NCBI GenBank assembly: GCA_963666365.2
Contig: CAXXNF010000002.1
Span: 1,632,001-1,696,000, forward strand
DNA: 64,000 bases
Source: Syntrophales bacterium
GTDB taxonomy: Bacteria; Desulfobacterota; Syntrophia; Syntrophales; UBA2210
Direction: 5' to 3'
Made by a program: the position numbers and the translations under genes. This document shows positions 8,331 to 63,898 of the stretch, piece after piece (the first letter of the stretch is position 1; each line of letters begins with the position of its first letter). Under the pieces are notes generated by a model. That model was not told the DNA's origin, did not search any database, and was given only the letters and a program-made list of their open reading frames with translations.

Positions 8331-8521
8331 GAGATCTTTGCATAATTGCGAATACGGTCATTGAGAGGAGCAACGCGACTCGGCAATCTCTTTCATTATC
8401 AGTATGTTCATCCCGACCGCAGGCGGTCGGGATGAATGGGGCCGCGCCTTTCGCCGCGGCCCCATTATGAGATTGTTTCACTTCGCTCGCAATGACAATG
8501 TAGGGAGTATGCAACGTTCTC
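8331..8521. mobile_element. MITE-like element (degenerate GAGACCTTTGCA termini) enclosing a GTCATTG...CAATGAC REP-like palindrome
   Basis: Ends GAGATCTTTGCATA and TATGCAACGTTCTC resemble the perfect IRs at 63539/63660; inner palindrome 8357-8496. Confidence 0.6.
8407..8464 (+). repeat. 58-bp double-hairpin element (short copy of the G|TT-inserting family)
   Basis: TTCATCCCGACCGC-AG-GCGGTCGGGATGAA then TGGGGCCGCG...CGCGGCCCCA; homologous to 32032-32176 and 30081-30185. Confidence 0.85.
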
Positions 8522-30080: not shown

Positions 30081-30185
30081 TTTTCAGAGGACGACAGATC
30101 ATGCCGCGTGTTCGTCCGCCGCAGGCGGCGGCAGGCATTGTAAGTCACGGCCTCGCTCATCCCGACCGCCTGCGGTCGGGATGAA
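30081..30185 (-). repeat. Truncated long copy of the G|TT-inserting palindromic element
   Basis: Begins G|TTCATCCCGACCGCAGGCGGTCGGGATGA and shares TGCCGCCGCCTGCGGCGGACGAACACGCGGC with 32032-32176. Confidence 0.8.
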
Positions 30186-31161: not shown

Positions 31162-31250
31162 AGTTAACGTCACAAATCACCGGCGGCAAAAAATAGAGCG
31201 AGGAACGAGCTGCGTTTTTTGCCGTCCGAGTGCATTTGCCTTGTTAGGGC
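31162..31250 (-). mobile_element. Integron attC site
   Basis: GCCCTAAC...CAAAT[G]CAC...GTGATTTG...GTTAACT; imperfect hairpin with extrahelical bases, 1 nt after a stop codon. Confidence 0.9.
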
Positions 31251-31251
31251 A

Positions 31252-32019
31252 TTATCTCCTTAGTACTGAACAGCTGTTTGAATTTCTAAAAAATGTGGTG
31301 TTATGTGATGTGTGATACACCATACCGTCTTCTGAACGAATGAACAGAGCTCTACCGCCACGAAGAACTTGATTCTTTTTGTAAATCCAGACTTCGTAAT
31401 CGCCGTTCTCGCCTTCACAATAGTATTTTTCCATTGGATCCCCTATATACGTAATTAGGTCTTCCTTAGACATGCCTCCATATGCCATGAAGGCTTTTCC
31501 TTTATCGTCCGCATTTTTTCCTGCATCAAGTCCTGCTGCTCTGAGAAAAGGCCACGTAGCGATTGCAACTGGGATAAGCGGTGCGTACGACAAAGCCTCA
31601 GCAGATTCTTCTTTTGCTTCGCCGGTTGTTTTCCCTTTGGGCTTCACCTTTATCCACCGAATGCTTTGGATTTCCGTGATCTGGACTATTTTCACTTTCA
31701 CCTCTTGTCCATGCGCGTCTTTTACGATCACATCTTCTGGGTCTGCAACCTGTTTTACTTCCGAAATTCCATCAAGGTTCTGTGCTCTTATAATAATTTG
31801 TACCTTCTCTCCCTCGTTTACGGATGCTGACGACAGGATCTTGCGCAAAGAAATATTTGGAAGTTTCTTCACCTCCTCAATAGAGAACTTCCAAGTCCCA
31901 TACGAAGTTTTTTTCCAATAAGGCGTCTTTGTTGTTGCGCAACCAGACAGTAACAGTAATATTACTGCTGATAATGCGGATACAATTACCCAATTAGATT
32001 GATCACGGCAACACATCAT
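31252..32019 (-). CDS. Hypothetical lipoprotein (gene cassette)
   Basis: Hydrophobic stretch and lipobox LSGC; cassette starts TTAGGGC, complementary to its attC GCCCTAAC. Confidence 0.75.
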   Translation of the reverse strand: MMCCRDQSNWVIVSALSAVILLLLSGCATTKTPYWKKTSYGTWKFSIEEVKKLPNISLRKILSSASVNEGEKVQIIIRAQNLDGISEVKQVADPEDVIVKDAHGQEVKVKIVQITEIQSIRWIKVKPKGKTTGEAKEESAEALSYAPLIPVAIATWPFLRAAGLDAGKNADDKGKAFMAYGGMSKEDLITYIGDPMEKYYCEGENGDYEVWIYKKNQVLRGGRALFIRSEDGMVYHTSHNTTFFRNSNSCSVLRR

Positions 32020-32031
32020 TCTTTGCCCTAA

Positions 32032-32176
32032 TGGGGCCGCGGCTGAGCTGCGGTCCGAGGAAAATTGTAATTTTCTGAGGGCCGGCAGATCAAGCCGCGT
32101 GTTCGTCCGCCGCAGGCGGCGGCACGCGGCGATAGTCGCGGCCCCATTCATCCCGACCGCTTGCGGTCGGGATGAA
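32032..32176 (-). mobile_element. 145-bp ORF-less palindromic element inserted at the attC G|TT crossover
   Basis: Removing it restores attC R' GTTAGGGC; same termini as 8407-8464. Confidence 0.8.
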
Positions 32177-32230
32177 CGCTACAAATCAGCCGCGCTACTT
32201 TTGGCGTCGGCTGCATTTGTTTTGTTATGT
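32171..32230 (-). mobile_element. Integron attC site
   Basis: ACATAAC-AAAAC-AAAT[G]CAGCCG[A]CGC...GCGCGGCTGATTT-GTAGC-GTT. Confidence 0.9.
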
Positions 32231-32242
32231 GATTCACTATCA

Positions 32243-33625
32243 TTAATATTTTTCAATAAGCCGTCGCATCCTCTTAATGGGTATATCTCTTAAATTACTA
32301 TAAAATATCCTTCTGAATTTGGGAATCTTGGTTAACAACATCATTATGGCCGTGGCAATTCGAACACCATAATCTTTCTGAGGAAAGTCATACTTTCCAT
32401 GTTCTTTAAAATACCTGTGATCGGACTGCCATATCATGCGAAGCCGGCCCCAGATATCATCACGAAATATTTTATGACCGCCGACTCCAAGAAAATTTTT
32501 TGGTTTGATATAATTTTGTTCGGAAAAACGTACCAACCGTTCTGCAAAATTCTGTAGTAGGTTATCTATTTCAAGGGAATCTTCACTTTCGTCGGTTATG
32601 ATATCAACATGATTTGAATCCTGCCTGGCAAATGAAGATGCTTCAAGATACTGAATGAGATTAGGTGTCTGGCTCAGGGGACCGGAGATGATGTACCCCA
32701 TTTGCTTACCAACCAGTGACGGCGTGTGATTCCAGAAAAAAGCCCGGTCGTAGAATGTCTTCCATTCGGAGGACAAAAATCGTCCTTTGACAGATCCGGC
32801 GAATACTATAATATCCGATGTTCGGACCTGATTATTATAAAAATCTGCAAATCCGTCCTTATACTGACAATTATAGTCGTATCCACATCGCATGCATCCC
32901 AGGCATCCACCTTTTATATCGATATCATCAAGTTGAACCACTTCCACATTATTCTCTAAATCAAATGATTCCAGAAATCTATTGACCATTTTCATTAGAT
33001 TTGAATTACTATCTGATGAATCCGTTAAGACAATGACTTTTTTACCTCTGGGACTGACTCTATTTGTCGCAGGTGATGGGTGATAGTTAAACTCACTGTA
33101 TGTCAGGGGCTTAAACAATTTCGAGGTTGCGTAGTGATTCTGAATCGCATTAAAAAAATTTTCAGCAAAGGTAACAATAGTTTTCCTTTCATCTTCTTTT
33201 CTAAGGTCAATAAGATCAAGTGAAAGACCATCTGAGTATTTCATCTCGAGATCTTCAGCAACAGATCTGATATAGTTATGAGCAGTATGATCAAAATAGT
33301 GAATTGAGGTTGATAATGCTGCTGTATATTTGTTTTTGAAAGCATCTTGAGCTGATCTTTCTGAAATCAATTCTATAAATCGCATATACTGAGCAGATAC
33401 AACCAGCACCCATAAGCCAAAAGCCCACAAGATGCCATCTGAGTTTTTAATTTCATCGATTATTGTCCCAAAATAATCACTATCTTTCTCCAACTTTATG
33501 ATATTTTTGGCAACATTAAAAACTTTGAACTCGTGCTGGGGAAATTTTTTTTGGATAAATTTCACATATTGCAGAGTGATGCTCGATTCACCTTTTGGGC
33601 TTCCATTTAGCACAGTAATTTTCAT
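32243..33625 (-). CDS. NAD(P)H-dependent oxidoreductase with two flavodoxin-like domains and an iron-sulfur flavoprotein Cys motif (gene cassette)
   Basis: VLNGSPK; CLGCMRC...C; visibly AT-rich; bounded by attC sites. Confidence 0.8.
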   Translation of the reverse strand: MKITVLNGSPKGESSITLQYVKFIQKKFPQHEFKVFNVAKNIIKLEKDSDYFGTIIDEIKNSDGILWAFGLWVLVVSAQYMRFIELISERSAQDAFKNKYTAALSTSIHYFDHTAHNYIRSVAEDLEMKYSDGLSLDLIDLRKEDERKTIVTFAENFFNAIQNHYATSKLFKPLTYSEFNYHPSPATNRVSPRGKKVIVLTDSSDSNSNLMKMVNRFLESFDLENNVEVVQLDDIDIKGGCLGCMRCGYDYNCQYKDGFADFYNNQVRTSDIIVFAGSVKGRFLSSEWKTFYDRAFFWNHTPSLVGKQMGYIISGPLSQTPNLIQYLEASSFARQDSNHVDIITDESEDSLEIDNLLQNFAERLVRFSEQNYIKPKNFLGVGGHKIFRDDIWGRLRMIWQSDHRYFKEHGKYDFPQKDYGVRIATAIMMLLTKIPKFRRIFYSNLRDIPIKRMRRLIEKY

Positions 33626-33651: not shown

Positions 33652-33709
33652 ATATAACGTGGCCTTTAGCGGCGCTTTTTTTGCGTCCGCTGGAAGGCAT
33701 AGGTTAGAT
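33652..33709 (-). mobile_element. Integron attC site
   Basis: ATCTAAC...GCCTT[C]CAGCGG[A]CGC...GCGCCGCTAAAGGC...GTTATAT. Confidence 0.88.
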
Positions 33710-33718
33710 GTGTTCGAT

Positions 33719-34996
33719 TCATAGCAACGTTTCACGACTTCGATCATTCATCATCAACAATGATATGACGCTTACCACAGCCAACGAAGACAAATAGAAG
33801 GCTGGAACTGATAGCACCGAGGTCTTGTCGATCAGCCAAGTTGCGACCATTGGTGTTGTTCCTCCCACCATTCCTATTCCAATGTTGAAGGTGACAGAGT
33901 ATCCTGTCAAACGATCATCGGTTGGAAATAGTTCAACCAGAAGAGCAGGTGCCGATCCCAGAGGAAAAACAATCAGCACTGCAAAGATCAACTGTGCCGC
34001 CAGCACCTGAGCGTATTCACCACTTAGAATTAATTCAAACATGGGATAGGCTAATATGGCTAATAGAAAGAAACCTATAGCCAGGAAATGGGTACGCCGA
34101 ATGAAACGGTCACCGACCCAACCGGATACGGGAATGAGAACCAAAATCATAGCCGTGGCTATGGTATTAATCTGCATGGCAGTGTCCAAAGACATACTGG
34201 TATTTCGCTGAATATAATTAGGCAGATATACCAACGGGATGTAGAAAGTAACACCATATCCTGCTGTGAAAGCCAAAGCTTGAAAGGTTTTCTTCTTATC
34301 TTTAGTAAATGCTTCTTTAAGTGGAGACCGGGATTTATGCTTTTTATCCCTACGGCTAATATGCCCCTCGTGTAATCTCTTAACTTGGGACCAAGCGAGT
34401 ATGCCCAGCAGCAGACCTACTAAAAATGGAATACGCCACCCCCAAGTTTCCGCGAAATGCTGCGATGAAAAAGTAGTAACCACTGTTGCTGCCCCTGAAC
34501 CCAAAAGTAGCCCGGCAGTGCTGCCGACGTTTGCCCAACTGCCTGCCAACCCACGCCGGTTTTGTGGGGCCGTTTCGACCATGTATGTAACTGAACCGCT
34601 AAACTCTCCACCGACAGAGAGTCCCTGAATCAATCGCAGTGCAATGAGGAGCAATGAGGCTGCAATTCCGATCTGTGCATATGTCGGCAGGGCACCGAGA
34701 ACAAAGGTTGGTACGGTCATCAACATGACTGAAAGGACGAGAACCTTGCGACGACCAATGCGATCACCAATATATCCGAATATGGCACCACCCAAAGGCC
34801 TCATCAGGAACCCGCAGGCAAACACAGCCCATGTTGCCAGCAAGGCACTTGTCGTATTACTGTCTGGAAAGAATGCGGCTGAGATGTACGGTACGAAATA
34901 GCCGAATAGCGCGAAATCGTACCACTCCATCACATTGCCTATCAATCCTGCAACGATGCCGGAACTTGACTGGCTTTTGTGGATATTGAATTTCAT
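33719..34996 (-). CDS. MFS transporter, MHS family (ProP-like); probable gene cassette
   Basis: GNVMEWYDF, RPLGG..FG..GDRIGRR, QGLSVGGE, WGWRIPF; attC 9 bp after the stop. Confidence 0.9.
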   Translation of the reverse strand: MKFNIHKSQSSSGIVAGLIGNVMEWYDFALFGYFVPYISAAFFPDSNTTSALLATWAVFACGFLMRPLGGAIFGYIGDRIGRRKVLVLSVMLMTVPTFVLGALPTYAQIGIAASLLLIALRLIQGLSVGGEFSGSVTYMVETAPQNRRGLAGSWANVGSTAGLLLGSGAATVVTTFSSQHFAETWGWRIPFLVGLLLGILAWSQVKRLHEGHISRRDKKHKSRSPLKEAFTKDKKKTFQALAFTAGYGVTFYIPLVYLPNYIQRNTSMSLDTAMQINTIATAMILVLIPVSGWVGDRFIRRTHFLAIGFFLLAILAYPMFELILSGEYAQVLAAQLIFAVLIVFPLGSAPALLVELFPTDDRLTGYSVTFNIGIGMVGGTTPMVATWLIDKTSVLSVPAFYLSSLAVVSVISLLMMNDRSRETLL

Positions 34997-35251
34997 CAGG
35001 TAAATTTCTCCTATACATTTTCGTAAATTATCTCAGAATCACAGGTGAGTCCGTTGATTATACCATCAATAGTTTGTGGATTGTTTCTCAAGCTTGCTTG
35101 CCGCTTATCAGCTATAAAAATAGATCCTTGTTGCGCAATACAGTCATTGGCGGTCTTTATTATTTTGTTATTATTAGAACAAGCACGATATTTCTATTTA
35201 TTTTTATTTCGATTGATTCACGCCGAAGTTTATCTTTCTATCATATAAGAA

Positions 35252-35423
35252 CACTAGTGTCCGGAAAAAGTTAAATTCATAGATAAATGTCTTGTAAGTA
35301 CTTGAATTATTTGATCCGGCTTTCGCAAATAAAATTGAAGTCGACGCACTCGTTAAATGTTCGTAAGCTGTTGTATTATAAAGATTAAATGCTAGTATCT
35401 GTCGATTATTCCGGACACTAGTG
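35252..35423. mobile_element. MITE with 15-bp perfect terminal inverted repeats containing CTAG
   Basis: CACTAGTGTCCGGAA ... TTCCGGACACTAGTG, no ORF inside. Confidence 0.75.
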
Positions 35424-35451
35424 ATACAGTATATAAAAATAATCGTTCAGG

Positions 35452-35529
35452 GTAACCTATGTCCTGACACCAAAATCGGCTTTAAAAGTAACCTATGTCA
35501 TGACACTTTTGGGTAACCTATGTTATGAC
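35452..35529. repeat. Three GTAACCTATGT..TGAC repeats, probably an IS481-type end
   Basis: Copies start at 35452, 35488 and 35513. Confidence 0.55.
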
Positions 35530-36334
35530 CTTTGACAATTATTAAATGAAATCTGTTAAAGAGTGCTGGATCGAGAGAGCACCTCCTTCTGCTATGGCTG
35601 TGCGAAGAAAGCCCCCGCCGGGAACGAAGCACAGATACGTGTTGGTGGTTACGGAAGACACCAATTCCGAAAAGATCATTCAGACCTGGGAAGGTGATAG
35701 ATGAAATTTCCTCGGGGCGGTTCAGGAAACGGGGATCTGCGATCGTAAGGCGATTATGGATTTTTATGCCAACGAATATGCCTATCCCAATAAGTTGTTC
35801 GATAGGTTTGCATCGGGAGGAATGATCACAACCATCCCTGTGGATAAATGACCCCCCTTTTTTACAAAGGGCTTGAATAACGCAAATAGCGTTATCGCGC
35901 TGATTCACGTTCCCGGAGCTACCACCCGCGATTCGGTGGCAGCTTCGGGAAATATCAGGCAGTTAAGTCAGCCCCGAAAGCACATAAAAAAAACCCTTTC
36001 CATTTTCCAATAAAAAGACTAGAATAACAGCAACTTCGTCGGTTGAAATCTATACCGTCACGGAAAAACGCACAGACAATGGGTGGACTCGATTACATCC
36101 ATGAGATCATTCGTGTAAACAATCAAATAAGCTCTCCTGCAACTCATTTTAGACAATATTCTCCGAATTTATACCCCACCCACTTTCGCCTGCGATGAGA
36201 AACGGTATCTATCGGATATTCAGCAATGTCTCCAATGAGTGAATTGTTCCTGATTTACCATTCAAAATTATTCTTCTGTGGTGTTCTGTAAAACAAACCG
36301 AAAATCAAAAGATTTTTTTATAGAGGACAGGACC

Positions 36335-39300
36335 ATGGAGAAATCATTAAAGAACTTTAGGATGTTCCCGATTCTTTGGCGAGTGTTGTCTCGCTATTCT
36401 CTATATGCCGGATGCAGACAATCCGACTACCACTTAATTACACGACGCTTTCATACGGTCGCGGCGGTTGTTTCCGTCATGTCGTTCCTGGCTTTGATGT
36501 TAACAGTGCCCCAGGCAAGTGCCGAATGGGCGGTCAGAGCGACGGGGACAACCCAACATCTCAGGGGCGGTTGGATTGCGCCGGACGGATCGATGTTCGC
36601 GGTGGGAGACGGAGGAACGATCCTGCAATCTGCCGGCAATGACTGGGTTATCATGGATTCCGGCACCAGCAACGCCCTCTACGACGTTTGGGGCTGTTCC
36701 ACCGACAATGTAGTTGCCTCGGGCGTCGATATTATACTGCGTTACGATGGGACATCCTGGGGACCGATCGCCACCTCTGACACCGAATCGATATACGCAC
36801 CGGTGTGGATGACGCCCGAAGGCGACAAGATTTTTGCGGTCAGCCCGTCCTTTACGGGAGGATATCTGCAGGTGTATCACGTGGACACCGAAAGCTGGGA
36901 GGGATGGGGGCGCTTTGTCGGAACCGTTTTGGCTTTCGCCGGAGTCAGCAACGATGTCACCATGGTCCAGAGTGACGGCAACATTGAGCGATTAGATAAC
37001 GATCTGGGGACCACCGAATTCATATACAACATTTACGAACAGGAGTCTCCCCCATTTTCACAACTGGGAGCCGCCTGGATCAATCCTGCCGACTGTCGCG
37101 AAGTTTTCGCGGCGAGTCAATGGAGTGCGAATATTTATCACTTTAACGGCACGGTCTGGACCAATATGAATGCCGGCATTTCTTCCGGTACCAGCATATT
37201 CGCAATAACCGGGAGAAGCGCCAACGACATCTATACGGTAGGCGTGAATGGAACTGAAGGGGTGGTTTGGCACTACGACGGCAACAGTTGGACCCAGGAA
37301 ATCACCCCCGAGATCTCCGGTCTCATCGATGTGGCCGTCGGAAGCCCGGCCAACGCCTGGGGAGAATACGGTCTTCATTTGTATGAGGTGTGGCCGGCTG
37401 CGGATCTGACTATTGAAAAGAACGCCGGTCAGGCAGGCTACATGAAGGGAGACGTGGCCGAGTTCACCCTCACCGTCACCAATAACGGGCCGGCGGATGC
37501 CAGCGGCGTACAGGTATTCGATACGCTCCCGGGCGGACTAGAACCGGTCCGATATCCCGATGGCAGTCTCGCAGCTGAAGCGTCAAATTTTGCTACAATC
37601 GGTTATGATGCCGATTCCGGGCTTCTCAGTTCCTTCCTCGGGGATATGGGGGCGGGAGCAACTGTGGAAATCAAGATGTCGGTGCAGACCGCTTCCGCCG
37701 GAGAGTTCACCAATACGGCAACGGTCATCGGAATGGTGGCCGACCCCGACAGTGAAAACAACAGCAGCGATTTTCAATATCGCGTGGTCGATCCCGAAGC
37801 AACGGCGACCAGCGGCAGCAACTTTCCGAGCAGCGCTACGGCCGGCGATCCCGTCAACACATTCACGGGAGAACTGATCATCAGGGAAGCATCGGATCTT
37901 TTCCTTCCCGGACCTATGCCGGTTTATTTTCAGCGCTACTATGCCTCCGGTTTGCGGCGGGCGTTCGTAGTCTCCCGCGTGGGCGACAACTGGCGTCACA
38001 ACTTTGACTGGACCATTCACTGGGTGGGCAATGTGCTGGCCATCAAAACGAACGAGGGCCTTGTTATCCGATACCTGAAATCCGACACCGTTGCAAATAC
38101 CTGGGTGCAGCAAAACAATCTCGCGTCTCCCCACGAGGTCATCCAGGTTACGCAAGAGTCCGTGACTTCCTTCTTCGTGCTCGATCCTCAGACAAACCAT
38201 ATCCTGCGGTTCACCGTGCCGAGCGGTTTTCATTCTTTCCGCCTTACGGAAATCCGAAACGGAAGGGGCTGCAGTGTGGCCCTCAGCTACAATGATGACG
38301 GCGATCTCGTGGAAGTCACCGACGGGTTGGACCGCACATTGACCTTTACCTACGACGAAAATGCGAACAACGCAGCACGCAAGCTGAGAATCATAAGCGA
38401 CGGCATCCGTTCCGTCCAGCTTACCTATGACGGCGACCTGTTGACTCAGGTCAGAGATCCCACCGGCAGCTTTACCGAGTACGCCTACGATAAGGCCCAT
38501 ACCGACTCGGGACTGCTGAAATACAAGCAACTGCCCGGAGGCACCATCCCCATCAAATATATGTGGGATGACATAGGAAAAGTCGCCAGCCAGACCGATG
38601 CAGAAGATCATTCGACCACTTTCAGTTATGTGTACGGCATCGGAGGCGCCACCACCACCGTCACCGGTCCTACAGACAAGACATCCACCCACGAGTTCGA
38701 CGCCAGCGGCAGGCTCACCAAGGCAACGAATGCGGCAGGAGAAGCCCGGGAAACCGGCAATGACGCCATCGGATTGCGAAGCTCGGTAACGCAGCCTCTC
38801 GGGGGTATTTGTTCCACCACATTCGATTCGGCCACCGGCAACCCCCTTTCCGCCACCAATGCCGCCGGCACCACCATCCGGAACGAATACGTTGAGCGGA
38901 CCGTCTCCCCCGGTTTTACCTTCAGGGAACTCAGCGCCGTCCGTTATCCGGACGACCGGTCGCTTACCTTCACATATGATACTCACGGATATCAGGTAAG
39001 CTACACGGACCGCGGGGGCAATACCTGGACGCGTACCTTTAACGATTGGGGACAGCTGTTGACGGTAACCAACCCCCTCGGGGGTGTCGAAACCCACACC
39101 TACAATACGGACGGCACCCGTGCCACCACCACGGATGCCGCCGGGAACACCACGAGTTACGAGTACGACACCCTCAAACGTCTCACCCGAACCATCCATC
39201 CGGACGAGACCTTTCGCAGTTTCACTTACGACAATGCCAACCGGCTGACTTCCGTTACCGCTGAGAGCGGGGCCTCCACCCTCTTCACCCACGACCAGGA

Positions 39301-41896
39301 CGGGGCCGTCATGTCCGTCGAGGATCCGAACGGCAACACCGAGACCCGCACCTATGACAGCAACGGGCGTCTTGCAAGCGTCACGGACCGAACCGGTGCA
39401 ATGCGCACCTTCTCCTACAATTCGACGGGACTGCTCGAAACGCTTACCTTGAGCAGCGAGGAAGTCTACAGTGTCGGGTACGATGATGCCGAGAGGTTGA
39501 CATCGCTGGGGTTACCGGACGGAAGTTCCTACAACCGCTCCTACGACACCAACGGCCGCCTGACCGGCAACAGGAGCCGCGGCGGCGGAAACGAAACGGT
39601 CACACTCAGCAATACGGGTCAAATTCTTACGCGCACCGACGCCGAGGGCTATGCGACCGAATTCACCTACGACGTATTAGGCCGCATACTGTCCCGCACC
39701 TCTCCCACCGGCAAGCAGGAAGTCTATACCTACTCCGACAACGATACGATCGAAACCTTCACGATCCAACCTCTTGGGCTCTCGACAAGCATGCAGTACA
39801 ATGCCCTGAAACGGTTAACCTCTCTTACCGATCCCAACGGCAATACGTGGACATATACCTACGACGACCAGGGGCGGACCTTATCTTCCACCGACCCGTT
39901 GGGAAATACGATGGAATTCAGTTACAACAGCCGCAACAGGCTTTCCGAAACCGTCTTCCCGGGAGAGTTGGGAGCCATGAACGCGTCCTACAATGCCTCC
40001 GGTCATCTGACTCGGAGACTGTTTACCGATGGAACGGACATAAACTTTTCCTACGACAGTCTCGGCCGGTTGACGGCGCTGGAAGGCGTAACCCTTTACT
40101 ACGATGCCGAAAGCCGGATCGTCGCCTGTAACGGGATCGCCGCCAACTACATCCCGGACTGCCATCGGATGTCGACACTAACCCTCGCTCCGGGAAAAAC
40201 AGTGACCTACACCTACAATACGGCCGGTCAAGTAACCCGGATACAAGACTGGGCTGACGGAGAGCTGTCTTTTACCTACGATTCGGAGGGACAAATCGCG
40301 ACGATTGCTCGTTCCAACGGCACGGAAACCGCCTTGACCTACGACGCCAACGGTCGCGTCATCAATATCTGGCACGGATCTCTGGCCGATATTTCTCTGA
40401 CGCGAGATGCGAGCGGCCGGCCAACAGCCGCGATGCGGGATCTTCCGGTCAGCTTCCCTATGCGTCTGCTCGACGATACCCATTCCTATTCCTACGATGA
40501 GGCCGGACATATCACGCAGTTCACATACGATGACCTTGGCCGGCTGATCGAAGACGACCGAGGCACCTACGCCTGGGATCTGGCATCCCGTCTGAAGAGT
40601 TACACGCGGGCCGGAAAGACCGTAACCTTTACCCAAAACGGCTTCGGCCATCTGCTCACTCGGACGGCCCGGGGAACCACACGTTCTTTTGTATGGAATT
40701 ACGCCTTTCCCTTCCCAGCAATCAGCATCGTCCGCGAGGCCGGAAACGACCAACGCTACTTCGTCCATCATCCTTACGGGATGCTTCTCTACAGTATTTC
40801 GGCAACAGATAATTCGCGGTGGTTCTATCACTTCGATGAACGGGGGAACACGGTTCTCATCACCGACAGTGACGGCGCAGTTATTGCGGCATACGCCTAC
40901 TCGCCTTACGGAGCGATACAGACCACCAATAAAGATATTGACAATCCCTTCACCTTCGGCGGTCAATATGGCGTTATACAAGAGGCTAACACAGGACTTT
41001 ACCTCATGACAGAGCGTTTTTATGACAGTCAAACCCAGCGATTTTTATCCATGGAACCTCTTACCCCCTACCTTCATCCCCTCACCACCAACCCTTATCA
41101 GTATGCTGCAGCAAATCCCATGTCCCATGTCGATCCCCTCGGAAAGCTCCCCAATGAAACCGATGCCATCGCACAGGAGGCTGGTGGCGGTGATGCGCTC
41201 GGTACATTTTTCACCGCATCCGGACTCATTACCAATGCGATTGACTCGGTCGGGACCGTTCTGGGAAACATGGCGGAGGAAACAGCAAAGGCCGCCAGCC
41301 GGGCTCTGGGCAGCAGTCTCACATTAGGGCATGCAGCGGGAGAGTTCATTGATGCTCACCTTGGCGGCAACGAGATGAGTCGCAAGGTACTGCGAAGGGC
41401 TGAGGAATACATGGACGAATTCACCCGTCTTGATAAACAGGCGAACCGATTGGCTGGCACAAGCGACTCCCTAAAAACAGTTGGAAAGATAGGAGACGGC
41501 TTAGGTGCCTTAAGCGCCGGTTACGAGGTCTGGAAATTTCGAGAAAAGAGTTCAAGGGGCCTGGAAGGTTATAAGCGGCTCACCAGATCAATCATGCGCA
41601 CATGGAGACGATGCGATGCTGAGGCGTTCGAGACCTTCGAAAAGCAGAAAAATTCGGAATACTGGCTGAGGAAACGGCTTATCATAAACAAATACAATGC
41701 GAAGAGGAACTTACTCAGCGCCGAATTAGATTTCTATGATAATTTGGGAATCAATCTTTTCACGACAGTGGGAGATGCCATGTGGAACGCCGTTCCTTAC
41801 GGAGATGCGGTAGGTCTTTTCGGAGGAACGGAGGCGATAGCCAACTGTGCCCATCGCCACATCTGGGCACCTATTTATAATAGCAGTGGTGAATAA
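36335..41896 (+). CDS. Large RHS/YD-repeat protein (signal-like segment, propeller-like repeats, DUF11 Ig domain, DUF6531, RHS core, C-terminal tip)
   Basis: ADLTIEK...TVTNNGP (DUF11), GDPVNTFTGE, many YD repeats, NPYQYAAANPMSHVDPLG. Confidence 0.9.
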   Translation: MEKSLKNFRMFPILWRVLSRYSLYAGCRQSDYHLITRRFHTVAAVVSVMSFLALMLTVPQASAEWAVRATGTTQHLRGGWIAPDGSMFAVGDGGTILQSAGNDWVIMDSGTSNALYDVWGCSTDNVVASGVDIILRYDGTSWGPIATSDTESIYAPVWMTPEGDKIFAVSPSFTGGYLQVYHVDTESWEGWGRFVGTVLAFAGVSNDVTMVQSDGNIERLDNDLGTTEFIYNIYEQESPPFSQLGAAWINPADCREVFAASQWSANIYHFNGTVWTNMNAGISSGTSIFAITGRSANDIYTVGVNGTEGVVWHYDGNSWTQEITPEISGLIDVAVGSPANAWGEYGLHLYEVWPAADLTIEKNAGQAGYMKGDVAEFTLTVTNNGPADASGVQVFDTLPGGLEPVRYPDGSLAAEASNFATIGYDADSGLLSSFLGDMGAGATVEIKMSVQTASAGEFTNTATVIGMVADPDSENNSSDFQYRVVDPEATATSGSNFPSSATAGDPVNTFTGELIIREASDLFLPGPMPVYFQRYYASGLRRAFVVSRVGDNWRHNFDWTIHWVGNVLAIKTNEGLVIRYLKSDTVANTWVQQNNLASPHEVIQVTQESVTSFFVLDPQTNHILRFTVPSGFHSFRLTEIRNGRGCSVALSYNDDGDLVEVTDGLDRTLTFTYDENANNAARKLRIISDGIRSVQLTYDGDLLTQVRDPTGSFTEYAYDKAHTDSGLLKYKQLPGGTIPIKYMWDDIGKVASQTDAEDHSTTFSYVYGIGGATTTVTGPTDKTSTHEFDASGRLTKATNAAGEARETGNDAIGLRSSVTQPLGGICSTTFDSATGNPLSATNAAGTTIRNEYVERTVSPGFTFRELSAVRYPDDRSLTFTYDTHGYQVSYTDRGGNTWTRTFNDWGQLLTVTNPLGGVETHTYNTDGTRATTTDAAGNTTSYEYDTLKRLTRTIHPDETFRSFTYDNANRLTSVTAESGASTLFTHDQDGAVMSVEDPNGNTETRTYDSNGRLASVTDRTGAMRTFSYNSTGLLETLTLSSEEVYSVGYDDAERLTSLGLPDGSSYNRSYDTNGRLTGNRSRGGGNETVTLSNTGQILTRTDAEGYATEFTYDVLGRILSRTSPTGKQEVYTYSDNDTIETFTIQPLGLSTSMQYNALKRLTSLTDPNGNTWTYTYDDQGRTLSSTDPLGNTMEFSYNSRNRLSETVFPGELGAMNASYNASGHLTRRLFTDGTDINFSYDSLGRLTALEGVTLYYDAESRIVACNGIAANYIPDCHRMSTLTLAPGKTVTYTYNTAGQVTRIQDWADGELSFTYDSEGQIATIARSNGTETALTYDANGRVINIWHGSLADISLTRDASGRPTAAMRDLPVSFPMRLLDDTHSYSYDEAGHITQFTYDDLGRLIEDDRGTYAWDLASRLKSYTRAGKTVTFTQNGFGHLLTRTARGTTRSFVWNYAFPFPAISIVREAGNDQRYFVHHPYGMLLYSISATDNSRWFYHFDERGNTVLITDSDGAVIAAYAYSPYGAIQTTNKDIDNPFTFGGQYGVIQEANTGLYLMTERFYDSQTQRFLSMEPLTPYLHPLTTNPYQYAAANPMSHVDPLGKLPNETDAIAQEAGGGDALGTFFTASGLITNAIDSVGTVLGNMAEETAKAASRALGSSLTLGHAAGEFIDAHLGGNEMSRKVLRRAEEYMDEFTRLDKQANRLAGTSDSLKTVGKIGDGLGALSAGYEVWKFREKSSRGLEGYKRLTRSIMRTWRRCDAEAFETFEKQKNSEYWLRKRLIINKYNAKRNLLSAELDFYDNLGINLFTTVGDAMWNAVPYGDAVGLFGGTEAIANCAHRHIWAPIYNSSGE

Positions 41897-42678: not shown

Positions 42679-43281
42679 TTGTATGCCAGTTCCGTGTGGC
42701 GTTTACAACGCTTTTACAATAAGCCGCTAGAAGATATCACCGAAGAGGAACTGCGTCAATATTGGCTTTGTTGTCAAAGTGAATTCTGCTGGAGCGATGC
42801 ATCGTTGCGAATCAGTTACGCCGGAATCCAGCATTTTTTCACCAGGATACTTGTCAGGTCCTGGAACATTTTCAATGAAATCAAGTGGAAGCGTGACCAG
42901 AGGCTCCCCACTATCTTAAGCCTTCAGGATACGCGAGTACTATAAAAGCCATCGCAATCCAAAATGGATCTTTCCCGCACTGGGTCACAACGGAGGCAAA
43001 GATGCACAATTTGCAAAAGCACATGTCAGCGACAGCGGCGTCCAGGGGGTTCTGCAACGCACATTGAAGCGTCTGGGGTTTAAAAAACATATTCATCCCC
43101 ATGTCTTTCGCCATGCCTATGCAACTCACCTGCTGGAAGCCAATATCCCATCGGGCATGTCCAAAAAATATTGGGCCACAAAGTGTTACGAAGCACCATG
43201 GTGTATCTGCATGTGACCACTCAGGCCCAAACCGATTCTCATACAAGGGTCTACCGGGTGATGCAGGGGGTGTTGTCATGA
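42679..43281 (+). pseudogene. Tyrosine recombinase remnant (IS91-associated type)
   Basis: N-terminal SAM-like domain ending LPTILS, later HPHVFRHAYATHLLEA and LGH..STMVYLHV in shifted frames. Confidence 0.8.
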
Positions 43282-53328: not shown

Positions 53329-53404
53329 TGGCTCCCCAGCGCGGACTCGAACCACGGACCCGATGGTTAACAGCCATCTGCTCTACCAACTGAGCTACTG
53401 GGGA
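53329..53404 (-). tRNA. tRNA-Asn(GTT)
   Basis: 76 nt cloverleaf, anticodon loop CTGTTAA, GGTTCGAGTCC, CCA end. Confidence 0.97.
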
Positions 53405-63681: not shown

Positions 63682-63784
63682 TGACAGCCAGGTTACCCCG
63701 GAGCAAACGTCGAAATTGCTGCCGCTGCTTCCTTCCGGACCTGACGGGGTTCACAATACGCCGTTCCCCGGGACCTGGCTGTCA
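63682..63784 (-). ncRNA. ffs: Signal recognition particle RNA (4.5S)
   Basis: Domain IV CAGGTCCGGAAGGAAGCAGC, terminal stem TGACAGCCAGG/CCTGGCTGTCA, upstream of dnaX. Confidence 0.95.

Positions 63785-63803: not shown

Positions 63804-63898
<95 letters not shown>

Follow-up and report, generated by a model that had tools for sequence, protein, structure and literature searches.

A gene-less 145-bp mini-cassette at an attC crossover in a Syntrophales array, probably a bare recombination site mobilised by integron integrases

The DNA considered here, termed the window, is a stretch of 64,000 nucleotides from a Syntrophales bacterium (contig CAXXNF010000002.1 of assembly GCA_963666365.2). Its minus strand carries a short array of integron cassettes without an integrase and, within that array, a 145-bp non-coding element that is the subject of this report. 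The array runs from a gene for a major facilitator superfamily (MFS) transporter, through genes for an FMN-reductase-like and a lipoprotein-like protein, to an RHH-PIN toxin-antitoxin pair (Table 1). The three attC sites recognised in the window are of the usual build, with AAC...GTT, spacers left unpaired and a single base bulged from the 5' arm; that of the FMN-reductase-like cassette has ACATAAC as its R'' (32230-32224), a bulged G and unpaired spacers. This attC (...GCAGCCGACGCCAAAAGTAGCGCGGCTGATTTGTAGCG) terminates at G32177, and the element lies between the G and the TT of its crossover, reading on the minus strand as a hairpin (hairpin 1, 32176-32147), T32146, GGGGCCGCG (32145-32137), approximately 95 nt, CGCGGCCCC (32041-32033) and A32032. 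The original prediction had described a palindromic element without an open reading frame (ORF), placed exactly at the attC crossover, and the minus-strand sequence (G32177 followed by 32176-32032) bears this out. As also predicted, removal of the 145 bp restores the partner of the next R'', in that G plus TTAGGGC is the exact complement of GCCCTAAC (31250-31243). The sole ORF over the element (31252-32151) arises from the gene of the downstream cassette, which by accident is open further upstream, and a TAA is present in that frame in copies of the type found in genome G067 (genomes, contigs and loci are designated G, C and L throughout).

Read as a cassette, the unit is TTCATCC...hairpin...GGATGAAC-stem...stem-G, with no payload. 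It starts with TT and ends with G, or with A in a minority of copies, and its first seven nucleotides, TTCATCC, are complementary to its own R''-like GGATGAAC; between the two lie seven plus seven paired bases and a loop of 2-3 nt, and nothing else. TTCATCC, the 3' part of the element's own R', thereby pairs with the R''-like GGATGAA, with the pairing extended to 14 bp, and this pairing is present in all 17 aligned full-length copies, with compensatory changes. The 5' end of a cassette complements its own R'' because R' is split on integration, and the same rule is obeyed by ordinary neighbours, namely TTAGCC/GGCTAA and TTAGGC/GCCTAA at locus L059 and TTAGGGC/GCCCTAA in the window. Downstream of hairpin 1 a long closed stem, P1, encloses two inner hairpins (P2 and P3/P4), and together these are the attC-like body of the cassette. 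The ends of the element, TTCATCC... and ...GGCCCCG, are not inverted repeats of one another. At gathering score, Rfam recognised in the window only a signal recognition particle RNA and two tRNAs, all ordinary (63683-63780, 63807-63898 and 53332-53404 (-)), with no family on the element, and a permissive scan of 31950-32300 returned only sub-threshold snoRNA- and rmf-like matches at chance level.

As single-stranded DNA the element is predicted to fold with a free energy of -55.1 kcal/mol for the top strand (z -8.0) and -59.6 kcal/mol for the bottom strand (z -10.5), values that none of 200 shuffles equalled. The adjacent attC folds at approximately -14 kcal/mol, rendering the element some four times more stable than neighbouring attCs; across the collection, energies are -50 to -69 kcal/mol for the 14 closest copies compared with -6 to -23 kcal/mol for 13 neighbouring attCs. 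The helix is uninterrupted across and beside the R box, with no bulge predicted around the crossover, and the absence of an unpaired spacer and of extrahelical bases noted in the original prediction is thus upheld by the fold, which contains neither, whereas the neighbouring attCs show both. In a circularised form, hairpin 1 (13-14 bp) is predicted to abut the long stem (10-15 bp), forming one helix of approximately 24 bp with G|TT in the middle.

This structure is conserved. An alignment of the 17 full-length copies has a mean column identity of 87%, and 96.2% of its cells are paired in the consensus structure, compared with 32-51% in slid controls; changes on both sides were present in 12 of 49 pairs, which 0 of 500 shuffles matched, albeit these statistics overstate independence, given the relatedness of the copies. 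In 17/17 copies hairpin 1 includes the left TT among its paired bases. In every one of the 17, moreover, the bottom strand folds better than the top, by a mean of 4.7 kcal/mol, which is in line with the idea of strand stability put forward by Nivina et al. (2016; PMC5027507). Since the element has neither spacer nor bulges, the choice of strand must rest on something else, and the only asymmetries remaining are the inner three-way junction and strand stability.

The element is repeated. With up to two mismatches allowed, the 14-mer of hairpin 1 occurs six times in the window against 0.70 expected, a number that none of 100 shuffles reached, and the further copies that had been predicted at 8407 and 30185 do exist, as a 58-bp mini copy and a degenerate copy, respectively; the former is flanked by genes for a CoA-transferase and a universal stress protein. 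Over the genome as a whole (4.0 Mb, two contigs), blastn located three full-length copies and seven that are shorter or decayed. The full-length copies, which are the focal one, C2:558962-559106 and C2:1854043-1854187, all lie after the last G of a canonical attC and before TTAG, and the latter two, while identical over 145 bp, have different attCs upstream and different cassettes downstream. Full-length relatives share 94-97% identity within this genome and approximately 83% in other genomes. Carriers number five among 101 related genomes (this genome, a congener, one of the same family and two from other families of the order), and one of the other-family carriers holds at least nine matches to the element at approximately 83% identity. 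A pattern scan of one genome for each of 185,579 species returned 15 loci in six metagenome-assembled genomes (MAGs), all labelled as delta-proteobacterial, Syntrophales or Desulfobacteraceae types, and a metagenome scan returned 29 loci. After de-duplication there remained 40 distinct copies with hairpin 1 in true orientation, drawn from this genome, the six MAGs and metagenome contigs. A blastn search of a plasmid collection yielded no match to the element.

The element is also common to genomes whose other cassettes differ. Genome G001, of the same genus, shares the element but not the flanking cassettes; when it was searched for an empty site, the flanks of the C2:558962 and C2:1854043 copies were absent and the element alone matched. 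Taken together, the element looks to have spread to many integron sites of several sediment bacteria. Two metagenome contigs hold several copies each: one of 6.7 kb (L075-L078) has four copies alternating with ordinary cassettes, and one of 228 kb (L090/L091/L097) has four copies within 4 kb downstream of an intI remnant, again alternating with ordinary cassettes.

The sites of insertion were then characterised from the flanks. Among the 40 distinct copies, 35 have G and five have A immediately to the left, with C or T preceding the left G in 36/40. In the 25 copies with a definable end the right side begins with TT in 23 and AT in two, and the bases after the right TT are A (15/25), G (15/25), G (12/25) and C (13/25). 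The combined junction, YG|TTRRRY, corresponds to the integron core site, and in nearly all copies the element is bounded on both sides by the G|TT crossover, as integron cassettes are; copies at random sites lacking that boundary, which the original prediction had named as contrary evidence, are not the pattern seen in these counts. The resemblance of the left flanks to attC was assessed with a constrained-fold score, the in-register pair count: 17 of 40 flanks scored 14 or more, compared with 51 of 600 random GTT sites of the same genome, and 13 of 40 compared with 22 of 600 scored 17 or more. This score replaced an initial energy-only score, which gave no separation from random GTT sites; a crude regular expression for attC proved too narrow, locating almost exclusively occupied sites, and was dropped, and a strict pairing detector missed most attC sites. 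Additionally, an attC covariance model (R1) was built from 13 canonical attCs of 53-60 nt, ten of which are themselves left flanks and for which its matches are consequently circular. R1 nonetheless detects six untrained left flanks with the 3' end at the junction (L074, L099, L077, L060, L069 and L061), while a true attC of 83 nt receives only 24 bits from this narrow model.

Insertion at the R' of attC sites, as predicted, is thus supported by both the score and R1, and attI sites beside intI are used too. At L059 an intact IntI of 355 aa (TIGR02249, 474.5 bits against a cut-off of 265) reads toward an attI, ...ATATATACAGTAG|TTAGCC, followed by two ordinary cassettes, each with an R'' complementary to its own first bases, and then by the element as the third cassette. 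L065 has the L059-type attI sequence with the element exactly at CAGTAG|TT, the same point at which an ordinary cassette is joined at L061. Remnants of intI lie 165-180 bp upstream of the element as first cassette at L067/L100, L068 and L097, such that the element is the first cassette at attI in four loci, as judged by intI, an intI remnant or an attI known beside an intact intI. The left flanks of L060, L062 and L066 have 55-104 bp in common with the attI region of L067, and no integrase was detectable beside the element in these three. Within arrays the element sits behind attI or attC in one orientation, and all 17 aligned full-length copies are collinear, indicating that a single strand or orientation is used.

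The base after GATGAA covaries with the element's final base. Among the 25 copies in which both ends are present, C...G (that is, AAC and G|TT) occurs in 20, T...A in four and C...A in one. Since both positions covary, the AAT/ATT of the focal copy can be regarded as a compensated minority state that adds one pair to the long stem; the AAT/ATT core proposed in the original prediction is therefore correct for that copy and does not hold as a trait of the family. According to Frumerie et al. (2010), IntI1 requires at the GTT triplet only that the first base be identical in the partner sites. With the conserved intergenic locus described below excluded, A is found on the left of two of four T-variant copies and of none of 31 C-variant copies (hypergeometric, approximately 0.01), a comparison of small numbers and related copies. 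The focal and 8407 copies have G on the left, and are hence mismatched by the first-base identity rule. The T...A variant fits that rule, and may be a natural example of changed target specificity.

Shorter forms of the element retain both ends and lose the interior, being either of 83-87 bp (C2:1069785 and L097) or of 46-58 bp (L066, L089, G001, window 8407 and L086). As read from the sequences, the deletions begin and end within short direct repeats, GCCGCG / GCGGC, to which the palindromic arms give rise, and recurrent slippage would therefore explain these forms. In other copies (L038, L039, G001:C84 and C2:1834917) the element is joined to half of an ordinary attC or to a cassette with an ORF. 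Hairpin 1 also occurs solo, as approximately 31 nt (G|TTCATCC...GGATGAAC) directly behind canonical attCs with the rest of the element missing (Table 1). The copy at L063 (G067:C19) is split after approximately 58 nt by unrelated DNA that has an inverted repeat of its own (GGGGACAGTATACAC...), possibly the end of an insertion sequence (IS). A diverged copy, of a subfamily with TTCAGCCC..., is present at L071, L073, L081, L082 and L096, apparently one orthologous site between two conserved genes. Here the junction base is polymorphic (G or A), as is the base after GCTGAA (C or T), and the copy is an old, fixed, non-integron insertion.

The integrase complement of this genome comprises remnants only, at C2:1858042-1858143, C2:1791544-1791738 and window 42679-43230, the last retaining an N-terminal SAM-like domain and C-terminal fragments. 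A 2.5-kb unit duplicated at 99.3% identity outside the window (C2:1855359-1857876 and C2:438262-440780 of G000) encodes a 313-aa XerD-like tyrosine recombinase without the integron-specific insertion, and one of the two copies lies a short way downstream from a C-terminal remnant of intI and the attI-like ...AATTGTAG|TTATGAC belonging to it. The attI of the array was not located in the window, there being no GTTAGAT partner for the R'' of the MFS cassette in 34900-37000. Upstream of the MFS gene, three direct repeats of ACATAGGTTAC lie within approximately 90 bp (35440-35560, minus strand) and could be a candidate recombinase- or regulator-binding array. Between the array and the integrase remnants, an ORF of 1872 aa (36278-41896, plus strand) with RHS repeats, DUF11 and DUF6531 is an RHS/YD-type polymorphic-toxin-like protein. 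A homologue of the FMN-reductase-like gene occurs in the genome of another family (L101, G077:C95:6254-7608; 81% identical at the nucleotide level over 1355 nt), where it is not followed by a recognisable attC, and the gene therefore apparently also exists as a plain gene.

Table 1. Positions of the element, its parts and related features. Coordinates are those of the window unless a locus or contig is given.
Feature	Position	Strand	Basis or remark
Focal element, 145-bp ORF-less mini-cassette, T...A variant	32032..32176	minus	Sequence, relatives and single-stranded DNA fold
Hairpin 1, TTCATCCCGACCGC-AA-GCGGTCGGGATGAA, perfect 14 bp	32147..32176	minus	Sequence, fold, compensatory columns 5/26, 6/25, 8/23
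P1, long closed stem: T32146 + GGGGCCGCG ... CGCGGCCCC, A32032 closing	32033..32146	minus	Fold; columns 31/146, 34/143, 35/142 covary
MFS transporter gene	34996-33719	minus	Array member
attC after MFS gene, upstream end of recognisable array	33656..33709	minus	R1 53.2 bits, but a training sequence
FMN-reductase-like gene, 460 aa	33625-32243	minus	Array member
Canonical attC of FMN-reductase-like cassette; crossover G32177	32177..32230	minus	Constrained fold k=18; R1 56.9 bits, but a training sequence
TTAGGGC, first bases of next cassette	32025..32031	minus	Complementary to R'' GCCCTAA(C)
Lipoprotein-like ORF, 254 aa	32016-31252	minus	Array member
attC of lipoprotein-like cassette; R'' GCCCTAAC 31250-31243; crossover G31168|TT	31168..31250	minus	k=21; R1 24 bits, E 0.001, untrained
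RHH-PIN toxin-antitoxin pair	31114-30483	minus	Array member
Degenerate element copy, array tail; left AATG|TTCATCC, right part decayed	30081..30185	minus	85% identity over 107 nt
58-bp internally deleted mini copy, outside arrays	8407..8464	plus	TATG|TTCATCC ... GGCCCCA|TTATGAG; no R1 match near it
Tyrosine recombinase / integron integrase remnants, no intact gene	42679..43230	plus	PF13495 on 42679-42945; TIGR02249 fragments 37 and 20.8 bits at 42932-43230
Solo hairpin 1 loci	L060 (flipped ~1816), L067 (~1855), G000:C2:1826523-1826584		

The reading favoured here, to which we assign a probability of roughly 85%, is that the element is a payload-free integron cassette cut down to its recombination site, mobilised by IntI and probably selfish. 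It is more aptly called a cassette itself than an insertion 'into' an attC. The original prediction had suggested a mini-cassette or integron parasite mobilised by IntI, and this is supported insofar as the position at the G|TT of attC and attI sites, the complement of the element's own R'', the single orientation and the lack of coding capacity are all observed, as is the spread in multiple copies, whereas the notion of a foreign invader is not. Mechanistically, IntI would recombine the folded upstream attC with the element's own 3' end, resulting in excision of a circle of approximately 145 nt that would be almost entirely self-paired, as a continuous helix of some 24 bp. The folded strand, most likely the bottom one, would then be re-inserted at an attI, at another attC or, rarely, at a plain G|TT. 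In the replicative-resolution model one daughter chromosome keeps the cassette while the circle can re-insert, and resolution of this kind with re-insertion would let the copy number rise. Since it carries only a hyper-stable site, and since deletions spare its ends, the element behaves as a non-autonomous, probably selfish passenger of IntI. The explanation is an ordinary one, in that no new enzyme or mechanism is required.

A number of observations weigh against this interpretation. Intact intI is absent from this genome, where the best TIGR02249 match scores 141 bits against the cut-off of 265, and two of its element copies are identical although only intI remnants are present; the copies here may consequently be relics, or have been moved by an integrase since lost. 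Among the 101 relatives, IntI exceeds the cut-off in 34 and the element is present in five, with both in two, such that there is no enrichment. The unpaired central spacer and extrahelical bases of a canonical attC are lacking, and R1, a narrow model of attCs of 53-60 nt, has no match to the element's own site at E<=1 in the window. Not every junction conforms, as the two right-hand AT junctions and the five copies with A on the left attest; three of the five represent the orthologous intergenic locus and the others are C2:1069785 and L089. Some copies, namely window 8407, C2:1069785 and the orthologous locus in five contigs, lie outside integrons altogether, and the solo hairpin 1 copies are not obviously accounted for by simple excision or slippage. 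Finally, in the assembled contigs covering the locus neither a circle nor a precise empty site was directly visible. What comes closest to an empty site is a contig from a marsh metagenome that matches the upstream cassette and attC with six differences (98% identity) as far as window 32175, TT included, beyond which its sequence is unrelated. Contigs aligned to the locus break inside the repeat, and one low-depth joint, in which a single contig skips 133 nt from 32179 to 32313 and has 26 other letters, is not interpretable.

A rival reading is a non-autonomous transposable element, akin to a miniature inverted-repeat transposable element (MITE) or to repetitive extragenic palindromes (REP) or palindrome-associated transposable elements (PATE), that is moved by an enzyme other than IntI and merely prefers attC, inserting at TT with a 2-bp duplication or next to hairpins. 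Candidate movers would be an HUH Y1 transposase or REP-associated tyrosine transposase (RAYT), a DEDD enzyme of the IS110/IS1111 type, or the XerD-like 313-aa recombinase. The arrangement G-TT-[element]-TT is formally compatible with duplication of TT, and the junction alone cannot tell the two apart, which must be counted against mobilisation by IntI, as must the identical copies in a genome without intact intI. Genes for such enzymes are also at hand, with a Y1_Tnp-like gene approximately 0.8 kb from a partial copy (G067:C27), IS200-like and IS110-like genes 0.7-1.8 kb from another (G067:C130), and the XerD-like recombinase of the duplicated unit approximately 2.7 kb from the C2:1854 copy. 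Y1_Tnp genes are present in all five carriers, but this says nothing because they are present in 80 of the 101 relatives, and IS110-type genes are found in just two of the five; the co-occurrence with intI (two of five), IS110 and HUH genes that the original prediction had proposed as a check is therefore uninformative. The attI targets, on the other hand, are not hairpins, and are used at the exact base at which ordinary first cassettes join; the target resembles the core site, with only YG conserved on the left and no fixed 4-5-mer. The left TT is paired within hairpin 1 in each aligned copy, the right TT is missing in two of 25, and the terminal inverted repeats expected of a MITE are lacking. 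A TT-duplicating transposase is thus unlikely, given the use of attI sites and the GTTRRRY-like target. Rfam contains no group II intron or other family that matches, and the IS elements and introns described as targeting attC (PMC3001079) insert at the opposite end of the site and in the opposite orientation. Transposition by a different enzyme is considered improbable overall.

A cassette kept for its usefulness to the array, whether as a mobile promoter or as a stable RNA or DNA hairpin serving insulation, transcript stabilisation or the pacing of recombination, has better prospects, although the odds are still judged to be against it. Gene-less cassettes of Vibrio and Treponema integrons are reported to show promoter activity (PMC11014356). 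The focal element itself contains a sigma-70-like TTGATC-18-TACAAT (32093-32064) directed toward the downstream cassette, with a similar TTGAGC-17-TAAATT readable in other subfamilies of the alignment; this match is 9/12, however, the region holds four such matches compared with 4.2 expected from shuffles, and in the G067 subfamily the -35-like hexamer is a weak one. Compensatory changes (columns 87/133 and 91/129) mark the inner hairpins as conserved to a degree that a recombination site does not require, and the element frequently opens the array or immediately precedes an ORF cassette. Conversely, the forms of 46-87 bp have lost the promoter-like part and inner hairpins while keeping the ends, which is the pattern expected if mobility alone is selected. 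Far less probable again is that the element is immobile, its copies having arisen by segmental duplication or gene conversion of the unusually long attC of one cassette family. The copies fused to attC halves or ORF-bearing cassettes might be so explained, and gene conversion has been suggested among paralogous non-coding cassettes of Vibrio (PMC1382264); but both flanks differ in essentially every copy, with similarity that breaks off precisely at G| and |TT, the L060 and L067 left flanks are alike over approximately 100 bp of attI-like sequence and not further upstream, and identity of approximately 83% is maintained across genomes of different families in which the surrounding cassettes are unrelated.

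As an IntI-mobilised cassette, the element has its closest known counterparts among the gene-less cassettes of Vibrio, which are described as highly paralogous, reaching 45 copies in V. vulnificus CMCP6 (Boucher et al. 2006, PMC1382264), as sharing more than 80% identity between species in which coding cassettes differ, and as selfish or promoter-bearing in the proposals of the same report; promoter activity is attributed to many gene-less cassettes by Blanco et al. (2024, PMC11014356). The resemblance lies in the lack of an ORF, the many copies and conservation while coding cassettes vary. The Vibrio cassettes are described as a non-coding body plus an ordinary attC, whereas the element has no body, only 2-3 nt separating the remainder of R' from R''. 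It differs from them also in R box pairing extended to 14 bp, in the lack of spacer and extrahelical bases, in its fold of -50 to -69 kcal/mol, in its hosts (Desulfobacterota MAGs) and in its occurrence at a number of attI sites, in multiple arrays of one genome and also away from arrays. The element is therefore of the same kind as the Vibrio gene-less cassettes, but with a new architecture and host range. With canonical attC cassettes, as described in PMC5027507 and PMC4889954, it shares the AAC...GTT R box, the G|TT crossover, an imperfect palindrome that folds single-stranded with a terminal structure that varies, a 5' end that complements the R'' of the same cassette and an array position behind attI or attC; the three unpaired features of those sites are mostly missing, the central spacer being fully paired and bulged bases lacking. 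Deletion of the extrahelical bases is reported to be tolerated by attCaadA7 and attCoxa2, but with raised top-strand recombination (Nivina et al. 2016, PMC5027507), whereas only one orientation is seen for the element.

The copies at G|TT or A|TT in ordinary intergenic DNA (window 8407 and L071, L073, L081, L082 and L096) resemble the insertion of cassettes by IntI outside attI and attC, at sites termed 'attG' (bioRxiv 10.1101/2022.09.11.507474); those experiments are described for ordinary cassettes, and the comparison rests on the G|TT junctions seen here. Arrays without an integrase (CALIN, meaning attC site clusters that have no integron-integrase) are reported to be common (Cury et al. 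2016, PMC4889954). IS1111-attC elements and group IIC-attC introns, as described by Léon and Roy (2010, PMC3001079), likewise occur in cassette arrays, tied to attC and orientation-specific, but near the 5' end of the attC and on the antisense strand; they span kilobases and encode their own DEDD transposase or reverse transcriptase. The element encodes nothing, a contrast drawn in the original prediction that agrees with that source, and is found at the 3' crossover in sense orientation, with attI also used. Both were rejected as identities for it, the former given a length of 145 bp, no conserved ORF and the sense position at the 3' crossover, and the latter given no Rfam family at the gathering threshold. 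No description of a payload-free or 'empty' attC-only cassette of this kind was found in searches of an incomplete literature collection.

A bolder version of the IntI-mobilised cassette, which we regard as rather doubtful, is a self-propagating 'naked attC', that is, a selfish, hyper-stable, payload-free dumbbell adapted by evolution to make use of integron integrases. If this were so, strict strand choice would be kept without spacer and bulges, and the T...A variant would have moved the crossover base to A|TT and with it the preferred targets. Landing at G|TT beside chromosomal genes would, moreover, seed new attC sites, as a DNA-only first step to new cassettes and to integrase-less attC clusters.

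Integron recombination sites are defined by structure and not by sequence, and laboratory work ties strand choice and efficiency to three unpaired features. With two of the three missing, the element has nonetheless been inserted dozens of times in one orientation, and it thus offers a natural test of the rules for attC and a candidate minimal substrate for IntI, which should be of moderate to high interest for research on integron recombination. It indicates, too, that cassettes can be pure passengers, which bears on the repeated non-coding cassettes that fill chromosomal arrays, and on the origin of attC clusters in genomes that lack an integrase. Were copies at ordinary genes capable of recombination, they would offer a simple route by which a gene might gain an attC.

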